A DNA stretch of 19,959 bases, from UHGV virus genome UHGV-1722906. The stretch is one strand, 5' to 3'. Below are positions 6,415 through 19,959 of this stretch, one piece after another. The translations under genes and the position numbers were made by a program. Under the pieces are notes generated by a model. That model was not told where the DNA came from, ran no database searches, and was given only the letters and a program-made list of their open reading frames with translations. Positions within the stretch are counted from its first letter, which is position 1. Each line of letters starts with the position of its first letter. Source of the stretch: a virus.

Positions 6415-7794
6415 CTACTTAATCAACGGCCGGAAAGCCGCCAGCACATCATCAGATCGTCCGATTGTTGAACCACCAGGCAACGGCAACTCAAACTCAA
6501 AACGAACAGCTTTCTCCAGACTCGCCCAACTAAGGGAATCATCGTTAATGACGTGCAAATACCAGCTCTTACAGTTGAATATTGACCGCTTAATCCTGAA
6601 ACCATGTACACGACACAACTGCTTCACTTCATCATCAGAGTGAAACTTCTGGTAAAACCAGTGCCCCTTCCGGTACAACGCGGTAAAACCGTTATGATCA
6701 ATAAAATAAAGCCGGCTTTTGGAACTCGCCGCTTGTGTTTGCTTCAGGACTGTTTCCAGCTCTCCACGGCTACGACCAGAAAAGAATATTGACCCACCAG
6801 CTTTACACAGGCCTTTTAGAACCGTCAGAACGGACCATTCAGCCTCGACACTATCGACCGAGTTCAAAACGCTATCGCAAATCACGTAGTCGTAACGCCC
6901 TCGCGTTTTTAAGTCGTCCACCAGCGTATCAATCATCCGGTTTGTTGCGGCCCTATCCAGAGTGTTTCCAGCGCCCTTACGGCGGAAAAGCTCGAGATCA
7001 TGCAGGTTATATCCCTTTGCCCTGAGCATTCGCGCGTAGTCTCCCTGCCCCGAACCAAAATCAATTCCTCTTGGCGTCTTGGCAATGATCGGGAGGATCA
7101 ACGACTCATACAGGTTTGATTTCAGGCTGCCACCATTACGCAACCGCATAAGCTGCGCATACGTCTGGATGTATGTTGTTTTCTCCAGATGAGAATACTC
7201 AAATACACCATAAGTTTTATTCAGATAACTTTGGTATTTTTCCTTCTCAACATCAGGGATCACAAACACCGTTAGCGGTGTGCGCGTCATCTTCGCTGCT
7301 AATGCATACTGAGCACAGTGAATAACCTCGCCAGACTGAGTAGCAACACAACCACCCCACGGACCATACTTGATAACCAGTTCCGCTATGTTCTTTCGAA
7401 CATATGCCATTTTCGCGCGCATATTGCCTGAGATCTGGCTTGCCGATACCTGAACAAAACCATGCTTATCTTCCAGACCGGACACCCTGCAACGCTCATC
7501 TCCGCTATCAAAATCCGTTCCGTTATGCAGTTGGTTAAACCGTACTTCGTCGTATACCGTCGTTTCACAGGGCAACACATACACCGCAGCACGCGTTATT
7601 CCCAACTTACGTAGCGCCTTCGTCCTTTGGTGTCCCGCCACCAGCAAATCGCCGCGCACTATCAATGGCTTCACAAGCCCCAGCTCCCTGACGCTTTCCG
7701 CCAGCCTCGCAAGATCATCCTCACCGATAAAACGCGGGTTATATTCCGCGCCACGTAGGTGCGTTATGTCGTAATTGAGGTGAAGCATCAGCAC
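6415..7794 (-). CDS. ParB-like N-terminal domain fused to a class I SAM-dependent methyltransferase
   Basis: 459-aa ORF. N-terminus has LLVAGHQRTKALRKLG (ParB/Srx box). Centre has GIDFGSGQGDYARML, a glycine-rich SAM-binding motif I. I could find no DPPY/NPPY or PCQ motif, so the substrate is uncertain. Overlaps the upstream ParB gene by 7 nt. Confidence 0.75.
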   Translation of the reverse strand: MLMLHLNYDITHLRGAEYNPRFIGEDDLARLAESVRELGLVKPLIVRGDLLVAGHQRTKALRKLGITRAAVYVLPCETTVYDEVRFNQLHNGTDFDSGDERCRVSGLEDKHGFVQVSASQISGNMRAKMAYVRKNIAELVIKYGPWGGCVATQSGEVIHCAQYALAAKMTRTPLTVFVIPDVEKEKYQSYLNKTYGVFEYSHLEKTTYIQTYAQLMRLRNGGSLKSNLYESLILPIIAKTPRGIDFGSGQGDYARMLRAKGYNLHDLELFRRKGAGNTLDRAATNRMIDTLVDDLKTRGRYDYVICDSVLNSVDSVEAEWSVLTVLKGLCKAGGSIFFSGRSRGELETVLKQTQAASSKSRLYFIDHNGFTALYRKGHWFYQKFHSDDEVKQLCRVHGFRIKRSIFNCKSWYLHVINDDSLSWASLEKAVRFEFELPLPGGSTIGRSDDVLAAFRPLIK

Positions 7795-8411
7795 ACCTCC
7801 CCAGCCAGCAATGCGGATACAAATCCGATATAGCTGCCATTATCATCAACATAACGAGACACCGCGCAGTCAAAACGATCCGCTTCCTCATCCGTTGCCG
7901 GGATTTTATGACCTCCAAATGACAGGTACTGAACTTTTACGCCTGATTTGGCCTCATCCTTCTCAAATGGGATATCCATACCCTCTGTGTCATCGTAGAC
8001 CGCCGCACTCAATAAGTTATCCAGTTCGCGCTGAGTAAAACCAATTGAGTCCAGAGCAAAATCATCGGCCGCAAGATCTGCAAGCTCCGCGCTTAACAAC
8101 TCTTCATCCCAACCAGCATTCAGCGGAATACGGTTGTCGGCCAGACGATATGCCTTCTTCTGATTCTCCGTTAGCCCAGCCAGAACAATGCAGGGAACAT
8201 CATCCATCCCCAACTGAGTGGCCGCAGCAATTCGACCATGACCAGCAATTACAACGTTGTTCTCGTCTATCAGGATCGGATTAGTCCATCCGTACTCCTG
8301 TATGCTGGCAACAATCTGATCTACCTGCTCCACGGAGTGTGTGCGAGCGTTCTTTTCATAACCAATCAACACAGAAAGTGGTAAAGAAACCACATTAAGA
8401 TGTTTTGTCAT
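7788..8411 (-). CDS. ParB-like nuclease domain protein (paralog of 4531..5121)
   Basis: 207-aa ORF with motif LIDENNVVIAGHGRIAAA. Colinear with the 196-aa protein through shared blocks such as KNxRTHSxEQV, TENQKKAYRxADN and LNAGWD. Confidence 0.75.
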   Translation of the reverse strand: MTKHLNVVSLPLSVLIGYEKNARTHSVEQVDQIVASIQEYGWTNPILIDENNVVIAGHGRIAAATQLGMDDVPCIVLAGLTENQKKAYRLADNRIPLNAGWDEELLSAELADLAADDFALDSIGFTQRELDNLLSAAVYDDTEGMDIPFEKDEAKSGVKVQYLSFGGHKIPATDEEADRFDCAVSRYVDDNGSYIGFVSALLAGEVC

Positions 8412-10194: not shown

Positions 10195-10460
10195 TCATCA
10201 TCTCCTGCCGCACATACAACCTCACAAAAAACATCAGCGGAATGTTTCTCCTTGAACGAATGACGCTCAAAACCGCACTCAATATCAGGCGCAAAAACAT
10301 CCACCACATACGGTCTTTCAGAATGTTGGTTTTCCCAACGATAAACCGTAGTGACGTTGAAATGTTTTAACGCTTCACGGAACTCAACGCTGCCCGTCAG
10401 GTTTTTTGAGGTCAGGTATTGCAGGAGGTTTTTTACTACTTCACGGTCTTGTACTTTCAT
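10191..10460 (-). CDS. Hypothetical protein (89 aa)
   Basis: ORF downstream of an AT-rich promoter-like stretch (about 10540-10580), overlapping the next ORF by 4 nt. Confidence 0.5.
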   Translation of the reverse strand: MKVQDREVVKNLLQYLTSKNLTGSVEFREALKHFNVTTVYRWENQHSERPYVVDVFAPDIECGFERHSFKEKHSADVFCEVVCAAGDDE

Positions 10461-10581
10461 CGGGTTATCTCCGGTTTAACCAGGGCGGGTATCGCTCGGT
10501 TTCGGGTATAACCTTAGGAAATTTTTTCCCACCTGTAAAGCATTTTTTATATAAATATATAATTATATAATTCTATGAGCA

Positions 10582-10608
10582 CAAAAAAGCCCCTTTGCAA
10601 CAGGGGCT
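10582..10608 (-). terminator. Rho-independent terminator of the higBA operon
   Basis: Hairpin AGCCCCT-GTTGCAA-AGGGGCT followed by UUUUUU on the minus strand, 16 nt after the higA stop. Confidence 0.6.
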
Positions 10609-10623
10609 TATCATTCGTTCTGA

Positions 10624-10923
10624 TCAGATGTTAAACGCTATTCGTTTTCCTGTGGGAAGCTCAACATCCAGGCTTAATTTGCCTCCCATAGCTTCAACGT
10701 AACGCTTTAATGTCGCCAGCTTTAAATCATTTCCGCGCTGCTCCAGCTTTGTTACTGCTGGCTGGCTTATACCCATCGCCTCAGCAACCTGTTTTTGTGA
10801 TAACTGGAGTTCTTCACGCATCATCTGCAAGCCGACCTCAAGAATCATCTCATCTGCCATTTCTTTAATTCGCGCCTGGCTTTCAGGTGAACGGCTGGCA
10901 ATCACCTCATCTAATGTTCTCAT
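10624..10923 (-). CDS. higA: HigA-type antitoxin (XRE-family HTH)
   Basis: 99-aa ORF with HTH segment LSQKQVAEAMGISQPAVTKLEQ. Lies downstream of, and overlapping by 1 nt, a RelE/ParE-like toxin gene; toxin-first order is the HigBA pattern. Confidence 0.8.
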   Translation of the reverse strand: MRTLDEVIASRSPESQARIKEMADEMILEVGLQMMREELQLSQKQVAEAMGISQPAVTKLEQRGNDLKLATLKRYVEAMGGKLSLDVELPTGKRIAFNI

Positions 10924-11276
10924 TACTTGCTCTCCAGTGTGTTCAGATGTGCTGCAAACTCATCCTCAGCTATACGCACCAGTTTTTCATAAAACCGTTT
11001 ATCGTTACTTTTGTCTCCTGCACAAAGAACGATGGCCCGGCGAATCGGATCGAACGCATAAAAGGCTCTTATCGGACGGCCAGAAAACTGAACGCGAAGC
11101 TCTTTCATATTTTTGTACCGAGAACCTTTTACGGTATCGGCATATGGCCTGGGTAACTCAGGTCCGTAAACCTGTAGCTTTTTCAAATCAGCCAAAACCT
11201 TTTCCTGAAGAGCGTCTTCTTGCTCATTTAGCCAGTCGTCAAATCGCTGGCTAAAAAGTACCGTCCACATGCTCAA
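10923..11276 (-). CDS. higB: HigB-type toxin (RelE/ParE superfamily, addiction-module killer protein)
   Basis: 117-aa ORF (MSMWTVLFSQRFDDWL...LRVQFSGRPIRAFYAF...) resembling the HigB/Gp49-like killer family, encoded upstream of its antitoxin. Confidence 0.75.
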   Translation of the reverse strand: MSMWTVLFSQRFDDWLNEQEDALQEKVLADLKKLQVYGPELPRPYADTVKGSRYKNMKELRVQFSGRPIRAFYAFDPIRRAIVLCAGDKSNDKRFYEKLVRIAEDEFAAHLNTLESK

Positions 11277-11280
11277 TCCT

Positions 11281-11330
11281 ATAACCTGTAGTTTATATCA
11301 CTAACTATATAACCTGTGGGTTATAATTTC
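11281..11330. promoter_or_regulatory. higBA promoter/operator with palindromes
   Basis: Immediately upstream of the higB start: inverted repeat TATAACC-tgtg-GGTTATA at about 11308-11327 and a related copy ATAACCTGTAGTTTAT at 11281-11296. Typical antitoxin operator layout. Confidence 0.5.
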
Positions 11331-11514
11331 AAGAAAAACGGGGCTATTTAACATAATGGACGTTATCGGCACCACCGGATCACCGTTCATTGTCGGATCT
11401 AAAAAATCCGCTCAAAAGATCATGTTTTCCTGGGCGTTTTCCACCGTTTTTTATGTTGCTTATTTGTTAATGAAATCTCGTTTTCAGTTTCGCCTCATTT
11501 TCGACGCGAAAGCC

Positions 11515-11805
11515 CTATTTTTGTGACTTTACTCCTGGCATATGGACTTCCCAGCGACGAATCCCCATAGCTGCGCAAAAATCAGCCACATAATTCAATC
11601 CCGCCCATTCGCGGATACCACCACGGGCTTTTTCAATGAAAACGGCAATCCCTTTTTTATTGAGAGCAAAAAGCCGCCAGCTTTTTGTCACTTCGTCCTG
11701 GGTAGCCACAACACAAGTGAAAGCTCCCATGCGATACAGGTCCAAGAACTCTTTGCGTGTTTTGCGTACAAGTTCCATAACAAACCTCATATTTGCATGT
11801 TTCAA
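11515..11805 (-). CDS. Hypothetical protein (96 aa)
   Basis: ORF overlapping the upstream HTH gene by 4 nt (ATGA). No recognised motif. Confidence 0.5.
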   Translation of the reverse strand: MKHANMRFVMELVRKTRKEFLDLYRMGAFTCVVATQDEVTKSWRLFALNKKGIAVFIEKARGGIREWAGLNYVADFCAAMGIRRWEVHMPGVKSQK

Positions 11806-12101
11806 ACATCTGTTTTGTTATCAATGAAGATTAACCCTAACCCAGCGAAGTAACACAGCAGCGCCCAGGCTGCATACGGAATGCTGGATCTGGATGTGGA
11901 CTCCTTTAACATCTGCCAATTGCGAACATTGCGACTATCTTTTAAGCCAAGTTTTTTGGCCAACTGCGAGCCGCTCATTCCGGTCAGGCCAATGACTGCC
12001 CGAACTTCTCCACATGTAGGAGACTCCCATTCATCCGCTTTTTTTAAACAAGCCGGATTCAACATTTTTAAAACAGTATCTTTATCCATAACCATCTCCA
12101 T
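11802..12101 (-). CDS. HTH DNA-binding protein with C-terminal hydrophobic segment (99 aa)
   Basis: Helix-turn-helix-like stretch LTGMSGSQLAKKLGLKDSRNVRNW and hydrophobic tail IPYAAWALLCYFAGLGLIFI. Palindromic operator upstream. Confidence 0.55.
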   Translation of the reverse strand: MEMVMDKDTVLKMLNPACLKKADEWESPTCGEVRAVIGLTGMSGSQLAKKLGLKDSRNVRNWQMLKESTSRSSIPYAAWALLCYFAGLGLIFIDNKTDV

Positions 12102-12129
12102 TTATTATATCTACGATGGTAGGAAATCT

Positions 12130-12146
12130 TTTCCTATGTGGCAATA
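12130..12146. promoter_or_regulatory. Palindromic operator candidate TAGGAAA-tct-TTTCCTA, with a third TAGGAAA half-site near 12200
   Basis: Perfect 7-bp inverted repeat 29-45 nt upstream of the HTH gene start; likely autoregulatory site. Confidence 0.4.
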
Positions 12147-12479
12147 GAAATTTACTACATTGCGTATAAGACAACTTTTCTATGTCTAATAGGAAATGAT
12201 GTTTCTTACGTTTTATCGCGTTCTGATGGCTACTGTGTGCGTATTTATCGACGTTTATTGATAAGGCTCCCCCTTCCTCCTGCAAAGCCCGGCCGTAGGC
12301 CTTATTTCGTCCTTATATAAATTGATTTTGTATAGTTCGAAACGTGCCGTTTCGAAAAGGATGATCAGGCTACTCCATGCCTCCGGCAAGTGCCGGAGGA
12401 GGTATATTTGAGCGTAGCGACTCGAACCGGCGCGAGCTTTAGCTCGCTGCAAGGGCGAACATATTCACAGGCAAAGCCT

Positions 12480-12731
12480 GCGTAAGTTAAATAAAGAAAG
12501 TTTTAATAAAAGAAAGTGATTTTGCATTTATTTGTTTAGTGCATCTATTATAAAAAACCATTTGCATATACATATCAAAACTGTGGATAACTTGATTAGT
12601 TGATACCTGTAAAGGCGATATTTTTGCTGAGTTCAGGTTTAGAGAAAATTAATTTAGCTTGTTTTTTGAACAGCTATTTTTTTGCGACGTAGATAATCCT
12701 CCGGTAAAACCGGATTCATCATTCAGGTGAG
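12480..12731. other. Candidate plasmid origin (IncFII oriR-like): AT-rich region plus a consensus DnaA box
   Basis: TGTGGATAA (reverse complement of TTATCCACA) at 12582-12590, about 145 bp downstream of the repA stop, next to an AT-rich stretch at 12480-12580. This matches the known repA-then-ori layout of IncFII replicons. Confidence 0.55.
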
Positions 12732-13580
12732 TTAATGTTGGAGTGATTTCCAGGTCTTTCTTAGCCTGTTATAACGCTGCTCAACGAGGGATCGTAAATA
12801 TGCAAGGTCAGCACCAGGATACATGCCATCAGCAAATTCCTGGCTAACCTCTCTAGTGATTTGATGACGAAGTTCGGCCTCTCCCTTTTCCTGAACAAGA
12901 CGCGCAGCTCTCTCCGCTGCTTTCTGTTTTGCCTTTATCTCTCTGGCCGTCTTCCTCTGACGCCATACATTCTCCATCTGCTCCTGAATAACAATACGCT
13001 TATAATCAGCCTCCGTTATCGCTTTTTTAAGCCGTTCGCTATTCTTCGCATTGAAGTAATTAAGTTTCTGGCTAACCGCACGTCTCCATGCTTGTTCAGT
13101 AATACCAACGGTTTCCAGCAGTTGATCACGAATCTCTATTTTCGCTGGCCAATACTGTTTATTCACCCGATCCCAGCGACGTTCATAATCAATAAAACCT
13201 AACGCTTTCAGTTGCGACAACGCCCTTGTACAGCGCGTTATAGACTTGTTCCCAGCTTCGGATACGGTAGACAGGCCGCAAAAATCAGCCAACGCCTCAG
13301 CACTAGCCAGAACCCGCTTAGAAATGATGTTTACATGGTGCAAAATCGCAGCGATCACAGCATTAATCGCCCGACGACGATGCTCGTTTATCCGGCGCTT
13401 CCGCTCTGACGGTTGATTAACGTAGAACGCAACCTCACACGTAAGATCACGCCCATTAATGCGCTGTAAAGCATCAGATAACACCAGCGGCAGCTTGTGC
13501 GTATGGTGCTTTGGAGGCTGGAACTCCGGCGACAAATTACAAACGTAAGCTGAACGTAGAGACGGCATTGGTCTATCCAT
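12732..13580 (-). CDS. repA: Plasmid replication initiator RepA (IncFII RepA1 family)
   Basis: From the ATG at 13580 (MDRPMPSLRS...) the protein is 283 aa and aligns by eye with R100/R1 RepA1 as I recall it, with RRRAINAVIAAI at the same residue positions as RRRAIDALLQGL and SITRCTRALSQLKALGFIDY against SITRATRALTFLSELGLITY. The track ORF extends to 13709, but those 43 extra codons overlie a terminator hairpin and are probably leader, not protein. Confidence 0.85.
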   Translation of the reverse strand: MDRPMPSLRSAYVCNLSPEFQPPKHHTHKLPLVLSDALQRINGRDLTCEVAFYVNQPSERKRRINEHRRRAINAVIAAILHHVNIISKRVLASAEALADFCGLSTVSEAGNKSITRCTRALSQLKALGFIDYERRWDRVNKQYWPAKIEIRDQLLETVGITEQAWRRAVSQKLNYFNAKNSERLKKAITEADYKRIVIQEQMENVWRQRKTAREIKAKQKAAERAARLVQEKGEAELRHQITREVSQEFADGMYPGADLAYLRSLVEQRYNRLRKTWKSLQH

Positions 13581-13589
13581 ATGTTCGCT

Positions 13590-13702
13590 CTTGCGTCCAC
13601 GGAAAACCAACGTATAATGGGAGTTGTCGAGGCGCCCATGGTTAATTGTTGGTTTTCCGTGGATGTCGCAAGAAGCCCGCAGATTTATCTGCGGGCTTTT
13701 TG
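13590..13702 (+). ncRNA. Candidate CopA-like antisense (countertranscript) RNA over the repA leader
   Basis: Plus-strand promoter-like TTGCGT-16-TATAAT (about 13591-13618), a long imperfect inverted repeat (13598-13615 with 13646-13663), and a perfect terminator hairpin AGCCCGCAG-ATTTA-CTGCGGGCT plus TTTTT (13674-13702). It is antisense to the repA 5' region and nothing on the plus strand is coding here. Confidence 0.4.
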
Positions 13703-13890
13703 TTTCCATATCTGGTCACTTTCCAACCAGACACCCACAATCATAACCACGTTACGTGGTTTTAAGAGAACTCTACCACAACACTTTCGGTCATGCACGA
13801 AGTCTCTCACTGATCGAACGATAATCCACCAGTAAAAGGATCTAAATTGGATCTCGTTTTGCGAGCATCATACTACTGGCCTAACTCCAG

Positions 13891-14445
13891 TCAATGATTC
13901 CCAGCCGGAAACCTGCGGTAAAGCGTGGATAAGGTAACATCGAAGATAATCGCTATCCGCTTACGTGAAACACCATTCGCAATAAGCCTTCCGATCTGTT
14001 CCCATTGCTCTGGTGCCAGCTTTGAGCGACGTCCTCCTATCCTGCCGTTAGCCCTTGCCACCGCCAATCCTGCACGCGTTCTTTCAATCATATTTTCCCG
14101 CTCCATCTCTGCGACTGCACTCAGCATCGTGTAGGCAAAGCGGCCAATTGAAGTGCTAATTTTTATCCCTTCCGTAATCGAAATAAACTCAATGTTGTTT
14201 GATAAAAAATGGTTAAGTAAATCAACAAGATGAATCAGAGAACGCCCCATTCGGTCCAGCTTCCAGACAATAACCGTATCGCCCGGCCGTAGCACCTTAA
14301 GTAGCTTATCAAGCCCTGGCCGTTTTGATTTAGCACCGGATATTTTATCTTCAAAAATCCGGTCACATCCTGAACTCCTGAGCGCCTCCAGTTGTAATTC
14401 CAAATTCTGGTCAAAAGTTGACACCCTCGCATAACCATATTGCAT
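13891..14445 (-). CDS. pin: DNA invertase, serine recombinase of the Pin/Gin/Hin/Cin family
   Basis: 184-aa ORF with N-terminal catalytic motif GYARVSTFDQ and a C-terminal HTH (IAIIFDVTLSTLYRRFP) like the Hin/Pin DNA-binding domain. Sits next to inverted tail-fibre cassettes. Confidence 0.9.
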   Translation of the reverse strand: MQYGYARVSTFDQNLELQLEALRSSGCDRIFEDKISGAKSKRPGLDKLLKVLRPGDTVIVWKLDRMGRSLIHLVDLLNHFLSNNIEFISITEGIKISTSIGRFAYTMLSAVAEMERENMIERTRAGLAVARANGRIGGRRSKLAPEQWEQIGRLIANGVSRKRIAIIFDVTLSTLYRRFPAGNH

Positions 14446-14510
14446 ACTTTCTAAACCGCGATTGTTGCTAAAAGCGGGAAAAAATATCGTTCAGACGACA
14501 CAGAGGCAAT

Positions 14511-14536
14511 TCGCAAAAACCTCGGTTTGCAGGAAA
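14511..14536. other. gix/pix-like 26-bp site A (extra site between pin and the functional left site)
   Basis: Reverse complement reads TTCCTGCAAACC-GA-GGTTTTTGCGAA. Its left half and inner flank are identical to the right site and the start of the expressed variable segment. Core is 49 bp from site B, so out of frame with it. Confidence 0.5.
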
Positions 14537-14558
14537 CGGTAAATCAGGCTTGCCGCCG

Positions 14559-14584
14559 TTATCGAATACCTCGGTTTACGAGAA
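14559..14584. other. Left crossover site B at the start of the silent Sv' cassette
   Basis: Reverse complement reads TTCTCGTAAACC-GA-GGTATTCGATAA; the outer half and about 21 bp of flank (encoding AAVIEY) are identical to the constant side of site R. Confidence 0.65.
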
Positions 14585-15280
14585 CTCGGCACAAGCGGGG
14601 AAAAAATACCGTTACTCAGTACGGCGAATACCTGGACCAATCGACAAACATTCAGTGGTGGCCTTTCTGGGGAACTGTCCGGCAATGCCGCTACTGCAAC
14701 AAAGCTGAAAACAGCACGAAAAATTGCTGGAGTTGGTTTTGATGGTTCTAGCGATATTTCAATTAGTGCCAAAAATGTCAATGCATTTGCACTCCGACAA
14801 ACAGGTAATACTGTTAATGGTGATACTTCCGTTGGATGGAATTGGGATAGTGGTGCATATAACGCCATGATTGGTGGCGCATCTGCATTAATTCTTCACT
14901 TTAATATAAATGCTGGTAGCTGTCCTGCCGTACAATTCCGTGTGAATTATAAAAATGGTGGCATTTCCTACAGGTCAGCTCGTGATGGTTATGGATTTGA
15001 ATTAGGTTGGTCAGATTTCTATACCACGACACGAAAACCATCAGCGGGAGATGTTGGCGCATATACTAAAGCGGAATGTAATTCACGTTTTATTACAGGT
15101 GTTCGTTTAGGAGGCCTGTCATCTGTTCAAACATGGAATGGGCCTGGTTGGTCTGATAAGTCAGGTTATGTCGTTACGGGTTCAGTTAACGGAAACCGTG
15201 ATGAATTAATTGATACAACTCAGGCAAGGCCAATTCAGTATTGCATCAATGGAACGTGGTATAACGCGGGGAGTATTTAA
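14561..15280 (+). CDS. Alternative tail-fibre C-terminal cassette (Sv'-like); promoterless, no start codon, expressed only after inversion
   Basis: Frame open from site B to the stop at 15280 per the track frame (track ORF 14867..15280 is its first in-frame ATG). Translates to ...LGLRELGTSGEKIPLLSTANTW...HFNINAGSCPAVQFRVNYKNGG...IQYCINGTWYNAGSI, a typical side-tail-fibre C-terminal domain. Confidence 0.75.
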   Translation: MEYLGLRELGTSGEKIPLLSTANTWTNRQTFSGGLSGELSGNAATATKLKTARKIAGVGFDGSSDISISAKNVNAFALRQTGNTVNGDTSVGWNWDSGAYNAMIGGASALILHFNINAGSCPAVQFRVNYKNGGISYRSARDGYGFELGWSDFYTTTRKPSAGDVGAYTKAECNSRFITGVRLGGLSSVQTWNGPGWSDKSGYVVTGSVNGNRDELIDTTQARPIQYCINGTWYNAGSI

Positions 15281-15282
15281 TT

Positions 15283-15816
15283 ATGATGCACTTAAAAAAT
15301 ATTACTGCTGGCAACCCTAAAACAAAAGAGCAATACCAGCTAACGAAACAATTTAACATCAAATGGCTTTATTCAGAGGATGGAAAAAACTGGTATGAGG
15401 AACAAAAGAATTTCCAGCCAGACACTTTGAAAATGGTCTATGACCATAACGGCGTTATTATTTGTATTGAAAAGGATGTTTCAGCAATTAATCCGGAAGG
15501 CGCAAGCGTCGTTGAATTACCTGATATTACAGCAAATCGCCGTGCTGACATTTCGGGTAAATGGATGTTCAAAGATGGCGTAGTGGTAAGGCGAACTTAT
15601 ACCGAGGAAGAGCAGAGGCAGCAGGCGGAAAATGAAAAGCAAAGCCTGCTACAGCTCGTCAGGGATAAAACCCAACTATGGGACTCACAGCTACGGCTGG
15701 GCATCATTTCCGACGAGAATAAACAAAAATTAACAGAGTGGATGCTCTTTGCGCAGAAAGTCGAATCTACAGACACTTCCAGCCTGCCAGTAACGTTTCC
15801 CGAACAACCAGAATGA
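15283..15816 (+). CDS. tfa: Tail-fibre assembly protein, alternative copy (Tfa') for the silent cassette
   Basis: 177-aa ORF; N-terminus MMHLKNITAGNPKTKEQYQLTK...[13 protein letters not shown] is homologous to the opposite-strand tfa. Confidence 0.85.
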   Translation: MMHLKNITAGNPKTKEQYQLTKQFNIKWLYSEDGKNWYEEQKNFQPDTLKMVYDHNGVIICIEKDVSAINPEGASVVELPDITANRRADISGKWMFKDGVVVRRTYTEEEQRQQAENEKQSLLQLVRDKTQLWDSQLRLGIISDENKQKLTEWMLFAQKVESTDTSSLPVTFPEQPE

Positions 15817-15820
15817 GAGA

Positions 15821-15848
15821 AGGCCCGATATCGGGCCTTAATTTTTAC
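15821..15848 (+). terminator. Palindromic terminator between the convergent tfa genes
   Basis: Perfect palindrome AGGCCCGATATCGGGCCT followed by TTAATTTTTA on the plus strand. Confidence 0.55.
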
Positions 15849-16372
15849 TCTGGTTTTTGTGGCCATTCCGGCTTTGCCGTATCCACGCGGCTGACCAGAA
15901 CGCTGTAGCGTTCCCAGGCTTCCAGTCGTGTACGTTCCTCATCTGTTGCCATATTCAGCCTGACAGCGCGCTCCAGTGGCTGAATAACGCTTTCCGCTTC
16001 GGAAAGTAACGCGGCCTTTTGTGATTCGGCCTGTTGTTGCTGCTCGTCTGCCGTATAAATCCGTTTAACTACAGATCCGTCCTTAAACATCCACTTACCG
16101 GAATCATCGGCCCGACGATTGGCTGTTATATCGGGGACCTCAACGACGCTAAAACCTTCAGGGTTAAGCGTGGAGGCATCTTTAGTTATGGCAACAATAA
16201 TATTATGTTCATCGTAAACAATCTTTATTGTGTCTTCCTGAAAATTCTTTACCTCTTCATACCAGTTTTTTCCGTCTTCGGACCACAACCAGATAACGTC
16301 AAAATTCTTTGTTAATTCGTACTGTTCCAGTGTTTTAGCGTTACCAGCTTTAATGTTCTTTAAGTGCATCAT
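15845..16372 (-). CDS. tfa: Tail-fibre assembly protein (Tfa) for the currently expressed fibre
   Basis: 175-aa ORF 1 nt downstream of the tail-fibre stop, with the conserved Tfa N-terminus [22 protein letters not shown]. Confidence 0.85.
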
Positions 16373-16373
16373 A

Positions 16374-18986
16374 TTAAACGCTCGCTACATTATACCAGGT
16401 GCCATTTATATACTTTTGAATCGGTCTGTAATAAACACCCGCAATATTATCGGCAGAATTGGAACCTGTATCCTGAACATTAATACCAGACAATACATGA
16501 CCTGACGGGCACTGGAAATTCCATGTTTGCCAGTTGTTTACACCATAATATTGCTGTGAGCCAAGCCGAACATCCTTTACATATCGGGAATCAATGTTAC
16601 CCCAATTGCTTGGTTGTATCTGACCGTTTACAGCAAATATCACCGAGTTATCTGTATTCCGCTGACTATAGAAATGCCAGCCTGAATCATCACCAAGCTC
16701 TGCAACAGTTGGTCTTGACGAATTTCCCCACAAGTTAAATGATGCATTACGGGCAGAGTTATTTGCACTTGCAAGAGTGAATAACTTACTTTCCCCAGCT
16801 TGAATACCCTTTAATGATATTGCTGAACCATTTCTAAAGCGGAATACATGCACACCATTAGCATAAGCATCCAGCACCCCATCACCATTTTGTTTAAACC
16901 CGGTATCGTTATCTCCTAAAACTATTGAATTGCCACCCAGGGCATTAGCCGTTCCAATCCCCAGATTTCCGCTAAAAATGGCATTAATACCGAATATTGA
17001 GTGAGAACAATAAAACCCTCGTCCATTGTTAAAATCCAGAATGGTCTGTACATTTGTGCTTTCTGTCGCGGGATTAGTTGCCCCCCACTTATATCTTGTT
17101 TGATCGATAGTATAATCCTGTGTTGGAACAATAACAGTTAGTCCTTCTTCAGCAAGAATCCGCACAGGAAAAGCCCTGCCTTCAATGTAAAAAACGCTGC
17201 ATACATCATCTTCTTTCATGCTTGTAACGATAGAATGGATTGCGCGTTCATTAGACTGATACGTCGAAAAATAACCTGCCGCATATGAACCACGATCAGT
17301 CCAGCCACCAGGCATTACCATTCCATTGAATTCGCAGTTATTCATTGCGTAATCACCACTGGCAGATGTGGTCGTTATAATCACTCTGGAAGCCAGCTCG
17401 CCAGTGCTGCCTGTGGAACGCCGGAAAATAACTGGATACCACTTTCCACCAACTGCATTAGACGGCGCATTAAATGCGTACTGCCGCATTCCTTTTTTCT
17501 TATCCACCTCGCCTTTGCTGTAAACATTAATGTTACTCAGGAAGCGACCCTTATCAGGAATATCCGCGCCGTTCTGGTTTTTTTGTAATGCGCCAGAAGC
17601 CTGATTTACCGTTTCCTGCAAACCGAGGTATTCGATAACGGCGGCAACGGTCGATTTCGCAAGAATATCCCGCCCGACTTTTGTCAGAGTTGCCAGGCTG
17701 GCGACATCATTCCCCGTAAAATACGGAAACCTGTCTGCCGCAGTGGCAAGCCCGGCCAGTGCGCTCAGCGTGTTGTCTTTCGGTTGCTTACCCGCAAGCG
17801 CGTTAGTCATGGTGGTCGCAAAATTCGGGTCGTTGCCCAACGCCGCAGCCAGCTCGTTCAGCGTATTCAGTGCGTCAGGCGACGAGTCCACGAGGGCAGC
17901 GATCGCAGCCATAACATAAGCCGTGCTTGCGATCTGAGTATTGTTAGTACCTTTTGGCGCAGTTGGTGTTGTTGGTGTTCCGGTCAGCGCCGGACTGTTC
18001 AGGGGCGCTTTCTTGTTCGTTTCATCCATTACCACCTTTACAGCTTTCGATGTCGCGGCCAGTGTTTCAGACGTGCTGTTGGTGGCACTACTGAGCTGAG
18101 TTATTCCCCTTACAGTCAGTGAAGCTACAGGCACATTTGTTATCTGCGCCCACGAATGCGTGTGATTGGACGGAGCCTTTCCGGCCGCAAGATCATACGC
18201 TGCCTTAACAGCCTTTGGTGTTGCTGCCAGCGTTTCAGACGTGCTGTTGGTGGCACTACTGAGCTGAACAATCCCTTTTCGCGCTGTGGTAGCGTCCTGT
18301 GCGGTGTATTTAGCGTTAGCCAGGTCATATGCTGCCTTAACAGCCTTAGGCGTCGCAGCAAGCATTTCAGACGTGCTATTGGTGGCGCTGCTAAGTTGAA
18401 CAAAGCCTTTTGAGGTTAAAGTTGCATCAGGATGATTACGTGATTGCTCATGTTTCACAATGGCTTGCTTAAGCCGCTTTGCTGAAACAGCAAGGGAATC
18501 ATCTGTACCTGCATCAATTTCTTGTTCATTAGCAAATCTTGCCACCCCAACAACAGTTTCGGTCGCGGGAGGATTAATAAACTCAATATCACCAAATGTA
18601 ATATTTTTAGTATCAAGAGTTTTAATTGCTATATCACTTGATATTAAAGCGATAGTAGATGATGCTTTATTTATTATTGCTTGTTCTTGTGAGTATACAG
18701 CAAACAACGTACCCTTATTCGTATACAATCCTATTGTATGGACAACATACTCATCTTTACTATCATCCTTCGCTGTTACATGAATTGTATCAGGGGAAAC
18801 AACTTTGCCACCTATTGTGGTAAGTCGTTTTATTTCGTTTGTTATATTTGTTTGTGAAGTTGACGTGACATAATATCTACTACCTAAACCAACAGAAACA
18901 ATCTCAACTTTATTTGTTCCTGTTTTGTTGGCATTAACCAGCTCCTGACGCCCGGCGTCAGTCATCGTAAATAATAATTTACTCAC
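16374..18986 (-). CDS. Side tail-fibre protein (constant N-terminal part plus currently expressed variable C-terminal part)
   Basis: 870-aa ORF with three copies of the repeat [11 protein letters not shown][TM]LAAT[PS]KAVK and C-terminal motif [13 protein letters not shown]. Contains crossover site R at residues 448-458. Confidence 0.9.
17613..17638. other. Right crossover site R inside the tail-fibre gene (constant/variable junction)
   Basis: TTCCTGCAAACC-GA-GGTATTCGATAA on the plus strand, closely matching the Mu gix consensus as I recall it. Encodes [11 protein letters not shown] at tail-fibre residues 448-458; inverted relative to sites A and B. Confidence 0.7.
18029..18400. repeat. Three tandem intragenic repeats (about 130 bp each) encoding the tail-fibre repeat motif
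   Basis: Near-identical stretches containing GTTTCAGACGTGCTGTTGGTGGCACTACTGAGCTGA recur three times, corresponding to tail-fibre residues about 197-320. Confidence 0.6.
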
Positions 18987-19016
18987 GCTTAATTCCTTGA
19001 ATAAACAAATTGCGAA

Positions 19017-19590
19017 TTAGCACTCGCCAATTAATCGTATATAAGACACAGGCTGACAAGCACCAACAATACCGACACCACCAGAAACATCGGCAGCTTG
19101 CGAAAATGTAAATAATGTTCTTGCCGACTTTGCGCTCTTGATACTTCTTAACGTATCTTCCAGCATCTCTTTCGAAGGAACGGCACCATCAAAAGAGTTA
19201 ATCGAAGCAACAATTGAGGCCGTATATGGTTCGCCAGGTGGTGATGTTTCAAACCATTCTGTTATGTTTACCTCTCCACCCAAGCTATTTACTACATCTT
19301 CAACCGCTGCCCTTGTACCCTTTATTCGCTTTGTTCGTATTATTGATTTAAAAACAGAACGATACAGGCCAACTATCCCTCCATGTATCAGCATTCCATT
19401 GCCAAGCTAAATGATCGAGAACAACTGAGTCCAGGTTATCAACAACGCTATATATTTCTGTCTTATATATTAAATTGTTAATTGCTTGTAGTTCATCATC
19501 AATAGCTTTCGACATAGCTATCACGTTGGGATCTCTAGCTAAGTTAGGAGGTAAAACATCCAACAAGCTAACATTAAAGATATCAGCCAT
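19017..19590 (-). pseudogene. Tail protein I-like (P2 gpI / e14 YmfQ family) split by an apparent frameshift
   Basis: Two overlapping track ORFs (19348..19590 and 19017..19394) are colinear with a single P2 gpI-type protein: the first ends ...LAWQWNADTWRDSWP and the second carries ...KRIKGTRAAVEDVVNSLGGEVNITEWFETSPPG, like P2 gpI VNVTEWWENSDPPG. The frame change lies near 19350-19390, next to an A5/T5 run. Confidence 0.55.
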
Positions 19591-19959
19591 CCTCTAACCC
19601 CGCATACTGGCAATTTATATTTCTCTCTCTGGCGACCTGCGTCTCTCCAACTACAGTAAATACAGGACTTGATATTTCTAATCTTTTAGCCCCGGCATTT
19701 TTTAAACGTTGAATAATTTCATCTGGATTTATATCTCTTCCCATAACCGAACGTTGCCATTGTTTATACTCATCAAGAGCTTTCTCAACCTCACTTTGAA
19801 TTAACGTTGTTCTGTTTTTGTCCGATGAGTTAATCCAGTATTTAATTATTATATCGTATTCAATGCTCTCTGGTTTCTTAACAAGAACTTTATCTGTGAA
19901 TGGTCGAATATTAGTTGCAGAGAGAACGCTATTTATCTGCTCTAATAGTTCATCAGAAG
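19583..19959 (-). CDS. Baseplate protein J-like, C-terminal part (partial; gene runs past the window end)
   Basis: Minus-strand frame open from the window edge to a TGA that overlaps the gpI-like start. My translation ends ...EIIQRLKNAGAKRLEISSPVFTVVGETQVARERNINCQYAGLEDG. Position upstream of gpI-like and the tail fibre matches P2/e14 order; assignment is by synteny. Confidence 0.45.
   Translation of the reverse strand, partial: SDELLEQINSVLSATNIRPFTDKVLVKKPESIEYDIIIKYWINSSDKNRTTLIQSEVEKALDEYKQWQRSVMGRDINPDEIIQRLKNAGAKRLEISSPVFTVVGETQVARERNINCQYAGLEDG

Follow-up and report, generated by a model that had tools for sequence, protein, structure and literature searches.

A third crossover site, probably derived by duplication, at the left border of an invertible tail-fiber segment in a phage-plasmid

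The stretch of viral DNA analyzed here (19,959 nucleotides, referred to as the window) carries a standard Gin/Pin-type invertible tail-fiber switch of a phage-plasmid of roughly 48 kb, in which the left border of the invertible segment holds two crossover sites in tandem, A and B, opposite a single right site, R. The sequence relationships within the window and with related loci indicated that A is the normal left site and R the normal right site, and that B, together with 49 bp, is the newcomer. We consider it fairly probable that these 49 bp arose as a duplication of the R region that was afterward redistributed by two ordinary inversions. The tandem is probably real, non-adaptive and transient, and the duplication would most likely be an accident of recent date, neutral to deleterious, in an element on which selection was already relaxed, and no regulatory device. 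An earlier note on this DNA had assigned the roles the other way round: A is the canonical site, B is the new one and R is the source.

Layout of the switch locus and its phage-plasmid

The fiber-switch locus is formed by an invertase gene, the adjoining invertible segment of 3.1 kb and the constant part of the fiber gene. Its features, in window coordinates, are the following:

13891–14445, minus strand: DNA invertase gene of the Gin/Pin/Cin/Hin type (184 aa), read away from the invertible segment
14356–14427, no strand assigned: predicted Fis-dependent recombinational enhancer at the 5' end of the invertase gene, inferred by position
14446–14509, plus strand: outer left flank, a decayed relic of tail-fiber coding sequence whose reading frame (..SGKKYRSDDTEAIRKNLGL) continues into site A
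14510–14535, plus strand: site A, the canonical left crossover site of the family, with the center TC at 14522–14523
14524–14572, plus strand: extra 49-bp unit (X28 + Sc19 + TC)
14527–14742, plus strand: out-of-frame ORF of 71 codons, not a gene, which would form the nonsense tail of the fiber after A x R inversion
14559–14584, plus strand: site B, the extra crossover site, with the center TC at 14571–14572
14573–15280, plus strand: silent variable cassette Sv(Y), a gp37_C-like tip (Pfam gp37_C), in frame after B x R inversion
15283–15816, plus strand: tail-fiber assembly chaperone for Y, in the silent orientation (Pfam Caudo_TAP, E = 8e-36)
15845–16372, minus strand: tail-fiber assembly chaperone for X, in the expressed orientation (Pfam Caudo_TAP, E = 1e-36)
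16374–17624, minus strand: expressed variable cassette Sv(X), the C-terminal part of the fiber
17613–17638, minus strand: site R, the right crossover site inside the fiber gene, with the center at 17625–17626
17627–18986, minus strand: constant part Sc of the tail-fiber gene, with three Phage_fiber_2 repeats

The tail-fiber gene (16374–18986, minus strand) encodes a protein of 870 aa, and each cassette, X and Y, is followed by its own Caudo_TAP chaperone gene. Three imperfect direct repeats of ~93 nt were found in the constant part (18019–18411), 74–83% identical to each other and spaced by 168 and 132 nt, and these correspond to the three Phage_fiber_2 repeats.

The invertase matched the Pfam families Resolvase (2.6e-44) and HTH_7 (2.9e-13), and its best solved relatives were the Mu Gin structures 3UJ3/4M6F (E = 9e-62 over residues 2–181); it is a close Gin homologue. 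The index lists 2331 collection blocks that contain the identical protein. The enhancer was predicted by positional homology to the annotated enhancer of P1 cin (nt 19–90 of cin), and one Fis-like motif, GNNYRNNWNNYRNNC, at gene position 71–85, is kept in both the invertase gene and cin. The proximal end of this predicted enhancer lies ~95–105 bp from the center of A and ~145–155 bp from that of B. In the Hin system, the usual distance between the enhancer and a hix site is ~100 bp, and the enhancer remains functional at much greater distances (PMC3798978).

The element belongs to a family of 48–50-kb phage-plasmids with a P2-like tail, an IncFII RepA and a ParB-rich region, which also includes the plasmid of E. 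coli ATCC 25922 and the Yersinia phages vB_YpM_39/41/44. Adjoining the RepA region, a RelE/ParE-type toxin of the Gp49 family is paired with an HTH antitoxin (10624–11276, minus strand), and this pair is typical plasmid-maintenance equipment in this phage-plasmid family. A leader- or promoter-like segment of ~120 nt (window 10457–10577) is present as three direct repeats, before three different genes, in the ATCC 25922 plasmid. The window jumps between copies of this repeat and is without ~16 kb of its relatives, comprising ParA, an XRE repressor, early genes, lysis genes, tRNA-Ile and MT-A70, and at the same repeat the contig NODE_2883, described below, runs on into the normal neighbor. At this point the window is either a deletion derivative or an assembly mis-join. 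Additionally, the gpI-like baseplate gene (Tail_P2_I) is split at window 19340–19400 by an 8-nt deletion relative to three related loci (L005, L001, and L002). The deletion, cagAACGctttAACGatac to cagAACGatac, lies between 4-nt direct repeats (AACG) and leaves two ORFs on the minus strand (19017–19394 and 19348–19590) of 125 and 80 aa, compared with 193 aa in the relatives. The split gene, as read from its sequence, suggests a defective virion module.

Crossover sites, the 49-bp unit and related loci

Crossover sites were defined as 26-bp sequences with 12-bp imperfect inverted halves and a 2-bp center (PMC3798978, PMC1904230, PMC4134206). When the window was searched with the degenerate 26-bp pattern, allowing up to two mismatches, exactly the three gix/hix-type sites named in the earlier note were recovered (A, B, and R only; 0.00 matches expected in 200 shuffles). 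Site A reads TTCGCAAAAACC-TC-GGTTTGCAGGAA, site B reads TTATCGAATACC-TC-GGTTTACGAGAA, and site R, on the minus strand, reads TTATCGAATACC-TC-GGTTTGCAGGAA, that is, the left half of B and the right half of A. The agreement noticed before between R and the two left sites extends into the flanks: the sequence shared with R is 36 nt long for A plus its inner flank (1 mismatch) and 35 nt long for B plus its outer flank. As had also been noted, A and B are directly repeated at a distance of 49 bp and consequently stand in different reading frames (49 mod 3 = 1). Both are inverted with respect to R. All three sites have the identical center TC, and matching 2-bp overhangs are needed for religation after the 180-degree rotation (PMC1904230). 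The halves of A were found in sites that invert in ATCC 25922, and B is identical to the recombinant of the two sites of the EC958 prophage Phi4, a segment whose inversion was seen in PacBio reads (PMC4134206).

The extra unit (14524–14572) is composed of the first 28 nt of cassette X (X28, 14524–14551, GGTTTGCAGGAAACGGTAAATCAGGCTT), the last 19 nt of the constant part (Sc19, 14552–14570, GCCGCCGTTATCGAATACC) and TC. Since Sc19, TC and X28 are contiguous at R with 100% identity, 14524–14572 is an exact circular permutation of the 49 bp centered on R; the source copy of the duplicated unit is contained in the 51 nt at 17597–17647. The two pieces are joined at TT (14550–14551), a microhomology common to both source flanks, and the novel tandem junction is ...AAATCAGGCTT/GCCGCCGTTATC... 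(also written CGGTAAATCAGGCTT/GCCGCCGTTATCGAA), with the core CAGGCTT/GCCGCC. The left half of B is a duplicated copy of the outer half of R; the right half of B belongs natively to the Y cassette, as its head. The "hybrid" appearance of R is explained if the inner half of A with its flank and the outer half of B were both copied from R and split by reciprocal exchange, of which hybrid half-site patterns are a trivial outcome. Conservative site-specific exchange cannot create extra sequence, and a replicative or illegitimate event is therefore required for the 49 bp. Purely conservative routes, namely intermolecular fusion with resolution and the use of quasi-sites, were rejected because they cannot duplicate sequence.

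Sixteen related loci were read (L001, L002, L004, L005, L010, L011, and L037–L046). A single left site was observed in all of them (16/16), always with TTCGCAAAAACC as the outer half and with the same flank, and in the ten loci for which the distance was computed this outer half lies 65 nt from the invertase ATG (10/10). The inner half varies with the cassette, being GGTTTGCAGGAA, GGTTTACAGGAA or GGTTTACGAGAA; an invariant outer half with three inner halves is as expected of a cassette-swapping site. Inversion of the segment was observed in this family in the assemblies of the ATCC 25922 plasmid. CP158444 and CP009073 represent the same 48,488-bp plasmid and differ by a 3.07-kb inversion bounded by the centers of A and R, and a G/A marker located 6 nt from the center is swapped between the left (A) and the right (R) sites. 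The invariant left site and this inversion identify A as the canonical, active left site of the family, so that the suggestion that A is a pseudo-site had to be abandoned: it is the left site in the 16 relatives and an inversion breakpoint in the ATCC 25922 assemblies. A had also been proposed as a footprint of past shuffling. The arrangement as a whole is indeed the footprint of a past rearrangement, but A, being canonical in the 16 relatives, is neither inert nor the odd one out.

The closest relative, L005 (GCA_018126225.1), encodes an identical fiber protein, with 100% identity in X and 99.9% in Y (one SNP in Y between the window and L005). At its left border, the left half of A, TC and the right half of B are joined straight to the same Y, so that L005 has two sites and is without the 49 bp; otherwise it is 99.8% identical to the window across the fiber module. 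This direct join marks B and the 49 bp as the newcomers. R is the source of the duplicated 49 bp and no hybrid made from A and B. Cassette X is 100% identical in L005 and L006, the constant part Sc is 100% identical in L005, L006, L008 and L009, and the Y cassettes of L006 and L009 are also 99.9% identical to that of the window. The same junction between the left half of A and Y was detected in the more diverged loci L004, L039 and L042, the Y of L004 being 96.5% identical to the window Y. By parsimony, its occurrence next to a Y that is 3.5% different, together with the near-identical two-site L005, indicates that the two-site border is ancestral and the 49 bp derived.

The divergence from L005 is distributed very unevenly. 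To the left of the site (10634–14359), 53 differences were counted in 3.9 kb, and to the right (14568–19959) only 1 SNP and an 8-nt indel in 5.4 kb. This jump at the left site points to different histories of the fiber module and the replicon/invertase modules, with a recombination boundary at or near the left site (window 14360–14867). The flank outside A (14446–14509) matches the start of the Y cassette at 20 of 21 positions with one gap, with an alignment score of 30 compared with 13.6 +/- 2.3 (maximum 23) in 1000 shuffles (z about 7), and it is identical in L001, L002, L004, L005 and L037–L046. Judging from this match, the relic may have remained from a cassette or site that occupied the left border earlier. 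In L004 (CP099184.1), an IS3-family transposase (6909–8137) interrupts the expressed tail-fiber gene, which is another fiber inactivation in the family.

Predicted isomers and the origin of the third site

Inversions were simulated on the window sequence, and the three sites were found to define four isomers linked in a cycle. The window itself is the X-ON isomer with the 870-aa fiber. Inversion between B and R fused the constant part in frame to the silent cassette, as had been anticipated, and produced a Y-ON fiber of 689 aa (...VIEYLGL/RELGTSGEKIPLLS...). Inversion between A and R yielded a frameshifted fiber of 526 aa with the 70-codon nonsense tail of ORF 14527–14742, which also bears out the earlier prediction of a truncated (OFF) fiber. 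The fourth isomer, which lies two inversions from the window and has the same sequence by either route, is frameshifted too and encodes a fiber of 493 aa. As all centers are TC, the halves are found in inverting sites and the spacing of the predicted enhancer would be compatible, both A and B are expected to be usable; both the A x R and the B x R inversions would then be expected in this element, giving two ON and two OFF states, the latter via A. Because of the topology of the invertasome, deletion by a Gin-type invertase is not expected between direct repeats that are only 49 bp apart, and an A x B deletion is therefore not expected here.

A search of 5.8 billion proteins for the A x R nonsense tail fused to a fiber collected only six candidates, so that its sensitivity is doubtful and its negative outcome weak. 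Neither a protein with one of the two nonsense tails nor any isomer besides that of the window was found. The sole match to the nonsense tail was a 67-aa out-of-frame ORF in a Y-type cassette of E. coli 908691, without the LQETVNQA part.

The fourth isomer contains the 49-bp unit twice, as a perfect head-to-tail tandem (2 x 49 bp) inside the fiber gene. Its left border, minus one 49-bp copy, includes a stretch of 160 nt across the crossover site that is exact in L005, and it is the only isomer that is one mutation away from a two-site ancestor. The history that we regard as fairly probable would have begun there, with a 49-bp tandem duplication across R, by slippage at the TT microhomology, that frameshifted the expressed fiber gene. 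Two ordinary invertase-mediated inversions, one at each copy of the duplicated site, would then have brought back an intact X fiber and shifted the duplication to the silent left border, where it now separates A from B. The window agrees with this history in that an exact contiguous copy of the unit is present at R, and in that two simulated inversions lead back to the 2 x 49-bp tandem and the L005-type border. On the other side, three events are needed, and recombination has occurred at the left site too, as the divergence jump relative to L005 indicates. A one-step multiple template switch is possible as a source of the tandem, but it would need three switches. A rare, recent event is in keeping with the failure to find the 49-bp tandem in large collections, and the 8-nt slippage deletion in the baseplate gene fits relaxed selection on virion function. 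Such relaxed selection, as these features suggest, would let a fiber-disrupting duplication arise and drift.

The tandem has effectively one witness, a single lineage in a gut metagenome of low coverage. A megablast search with 14496–14600 returned no place covering at least 80% of the query in 5,426 complete E. coli genomes, in 72,556 PLSDB plasmids or in 50,697 INPHARED phages. The junction 22-mer had no match in IMG/VR, and in the GTDB representatives and the JGI/ENA metagenome contigs it gave chance matches in a Clostridiales MAG, plus the contig OLRK01002883.1. A search of IMG/VR for tandem pairs of the 10-nt core 35–65 bp apart gave ten matches, all of them unrelated tandem repeats. The sole other carrier, OLRK01002883.1 (ERZ1742772 NODE_2883; k-mer coverage 2.77), is 100% identical to window 10457–19959 (9.5 kb) and ends at the same base, so the window and NODE_2883 are probably from one sample. 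When independent carriers of the tandem were sought through the lineage-specific frameshifted baseplate protein, two assemblies only were found, apparently of one sample. The lineage is represented by a third assembly too, FENG15-1_SAMEA3136736 (2.4 kb), which breaks off 50 nt beyond the center of R.

These records raise the question of whether the 49-bp insertion is an artefact, produced during library preparation or assembly from a metagenome of low coverage that contained the segment in both orientations. In its favor are the low coverage and shared end of the only two carriers, the break of the third assembly close to R, the failure to find the tandem in any curated collection searched, and the joining of two regions across the ~120-nt repeat, which conflicts with NODE_2883 and with all complete relatives and suggests at least one mis-join in this assembly. 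However, the junction CAGGCTT/GCCGCC has only 2 nt common to its two sources, too few for a de Bruijn path error to make it, so that reads with the junction must exist. For a chimeric read to arise at random, its breakpoints would have to fall within 28 nt of one crossover center and within 21 nt of another, 3 kb away, with the right polarity and with two complete 26-bp sites in register, which is very unlikely by chance. The flanks are also clean, with 1 SNP relative to L005 in 5.4 kb. We therefore regard an artefact as unlikely. The direction of change could also be reversed, if B, 19–21 nt of constant sequence and Y came as a captured cassette from the fiber gene expressed by a different phage, and if illegitimate recombination placed them 28 nt into a resident X-type cassette adjoining A. 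The tandem would then be a transitional form, from which an A x B deletion later made the two-site border of the L005 type. The matches to P2-like phages (Xuanwuvirus P884B11, Shae_phiSM, and E. coli prophages) begin at window ~14555, which means that the constant end and Y are contiguous in the fiber genes of other phages; in this family, A is commonly adjoined by the start of an X-type cassette, the abrupt change in divergence from L005 at the left site shows module exchange, and the outer flank of A, as a decayed cassette relic, shows that accretion at this border has happened before. Nevertheless, we consider such a capture quite improbable. The left half of A is already joined to Y in L004, where Y is 3.5% different, and the window Y is 99.9% identical to that of the two-site L005, so that the 49 bp appear derived; the R region of the window itself matches the 49 bp in both halves with 100% identity; the geometry calls for insertion in inverted orientation, through an illegitimate junction and a further one; and the final step would be the very A x B deletion across 49 bp that is not expected of a Gin-type enzyme.

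A functional role of the tandem is the least probable of these explanations, and in our judgment highly improbable. Site A would serve either as the OFF crossover site of an ON/OFF phase switch of the fiber or as an invertase operator over the invertase promoter. A x R inversion does yield a truncated fiber in the simulations, A is located in front of the invertase gene, 65 nt from its ATG, in the place where a promoter must be, and third, quasi sites have been documented for P1 Cin (Iida and Hiestand-Nauer, 1987, as cited in PMC4134206). Against a special function, A is present and active in every two-site relative, whereas the tandem occurs in one lineage only; the OFF states would give fiber-less, non-infective particles, with no evident benefit; and the frameshifted baseplate gene suggests decay, not design. 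No sigma-70 consensus promoter was found in a scan of 14380–14700, and none overlaps A or B, which leaves the proposal of an autoregulatory site over the pin promoter without support in the sequence.

Comparison with known inversion systems and meaning of the extra site

By the features tested, the locus is a member of the Din family, which comprises the Mu G segment with Gin, the P1 C segment with Cin, the e14 P segment with Pin, the S. boydii B segment with PinB and the EC958 prophage Phi4. As in the Mu G/Gin-gix, e14 P-Pin and S. boydii B-PinB systems, a small serine invertase adjoins the segment and is read away from it, the 26-bp sites with a 2-bp center are located at the junction of the constant and variable fiber parts, and two Sv cassettes with their chaperones are opposed. 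The chaperone and cassette region is 88–89% identical at the DNA level to Mu, D108 and P1. Mu differs in having two sites; here there is a third, seemingly from a 49-bp crossover duplicate, and one of the two inversions is out of frame. The replicon also differs from that of Mu, being a phage-plasmid with a P2-like tail and an IncFII RepA. The sites of EC958 Phi4 (5' TTATCGAATACCTCGGTTTACAGGAA and 3' TTATCTAAAACCTCGGTTTACGAGAA; PMC4134206) are nearly the same as those described here. However, Phi4 has two sites only, and the outer flank on its silent side is constant-region-like, as part of a 36-bp inverted repeat, whereas in the present locus the constant-like flank is that of the duplicated copy, and the canonical outer flank is a different sequence.

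The Min system of plasmid p15B, with its six mix sites, likewise has a single Din-family invertase acting on more than two crossover sites and forms more than two isomers (multiple inversion described by Sandmeier, as cited in PMC4134206). Every extra site of Min is followed by an in-frame cassette of its own, which widens the host range. The extra site described here has no cassette of its own and lies 49 bp from its direct neighbor, and only frameshifted products come from it: there are two cassettes for three sites, and the use of the second site gives the fibers of 526 and 493 aa. The locus is therefore not a Min-like multi-cassette system. A parallel is also offered by the quasi-sites (cixQ) of P1 Cin and the localized conversion at cix, where a third site can recombine with a bona fide site into non-standard products (Iida and Hiestand-Nauer, 1986, 1987, listed as references 50–51 of PMC4134206). 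The P1 quasi-sites are poor, fortuitous and used at low frequency, whereas A and B are full-consensus sites whose halves are proven to be active elsewhere. No pseudo-cix site was annotated in the inspected stretch of the P1 record, and nothing relevant on cixPp or quasi-cix came up in the literature searched.

What is new here is a duplicated crossover site, and neither a new mechanism nor a new class of element is revealed. For annotation, the lesson is that the conserved site next to the invertase is the functional one, whether or not it is in frame. If the tandem is real, the duplication of a site followed by the inversions of the system itself would be a simple route from two to three sites, and the locus would be a natural substrate for studying how the invertasome chooses between adjacent, equal sites at ~100 and ~150 bp from the enhancer. 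A fuller reading can be offered only tentatively, namely that this is a natural three-site Gin-type switch, with a real tandem, both left sites active and a four-state cycle, in which the birth of an extra site has been caught in the act. If so, the relic outside A (14446–14509) would have been left by a previous round of this process, and site duplication in the expressed gene, followed by inversion, would provide the raw material for multi-site systems such as Min of p15B.
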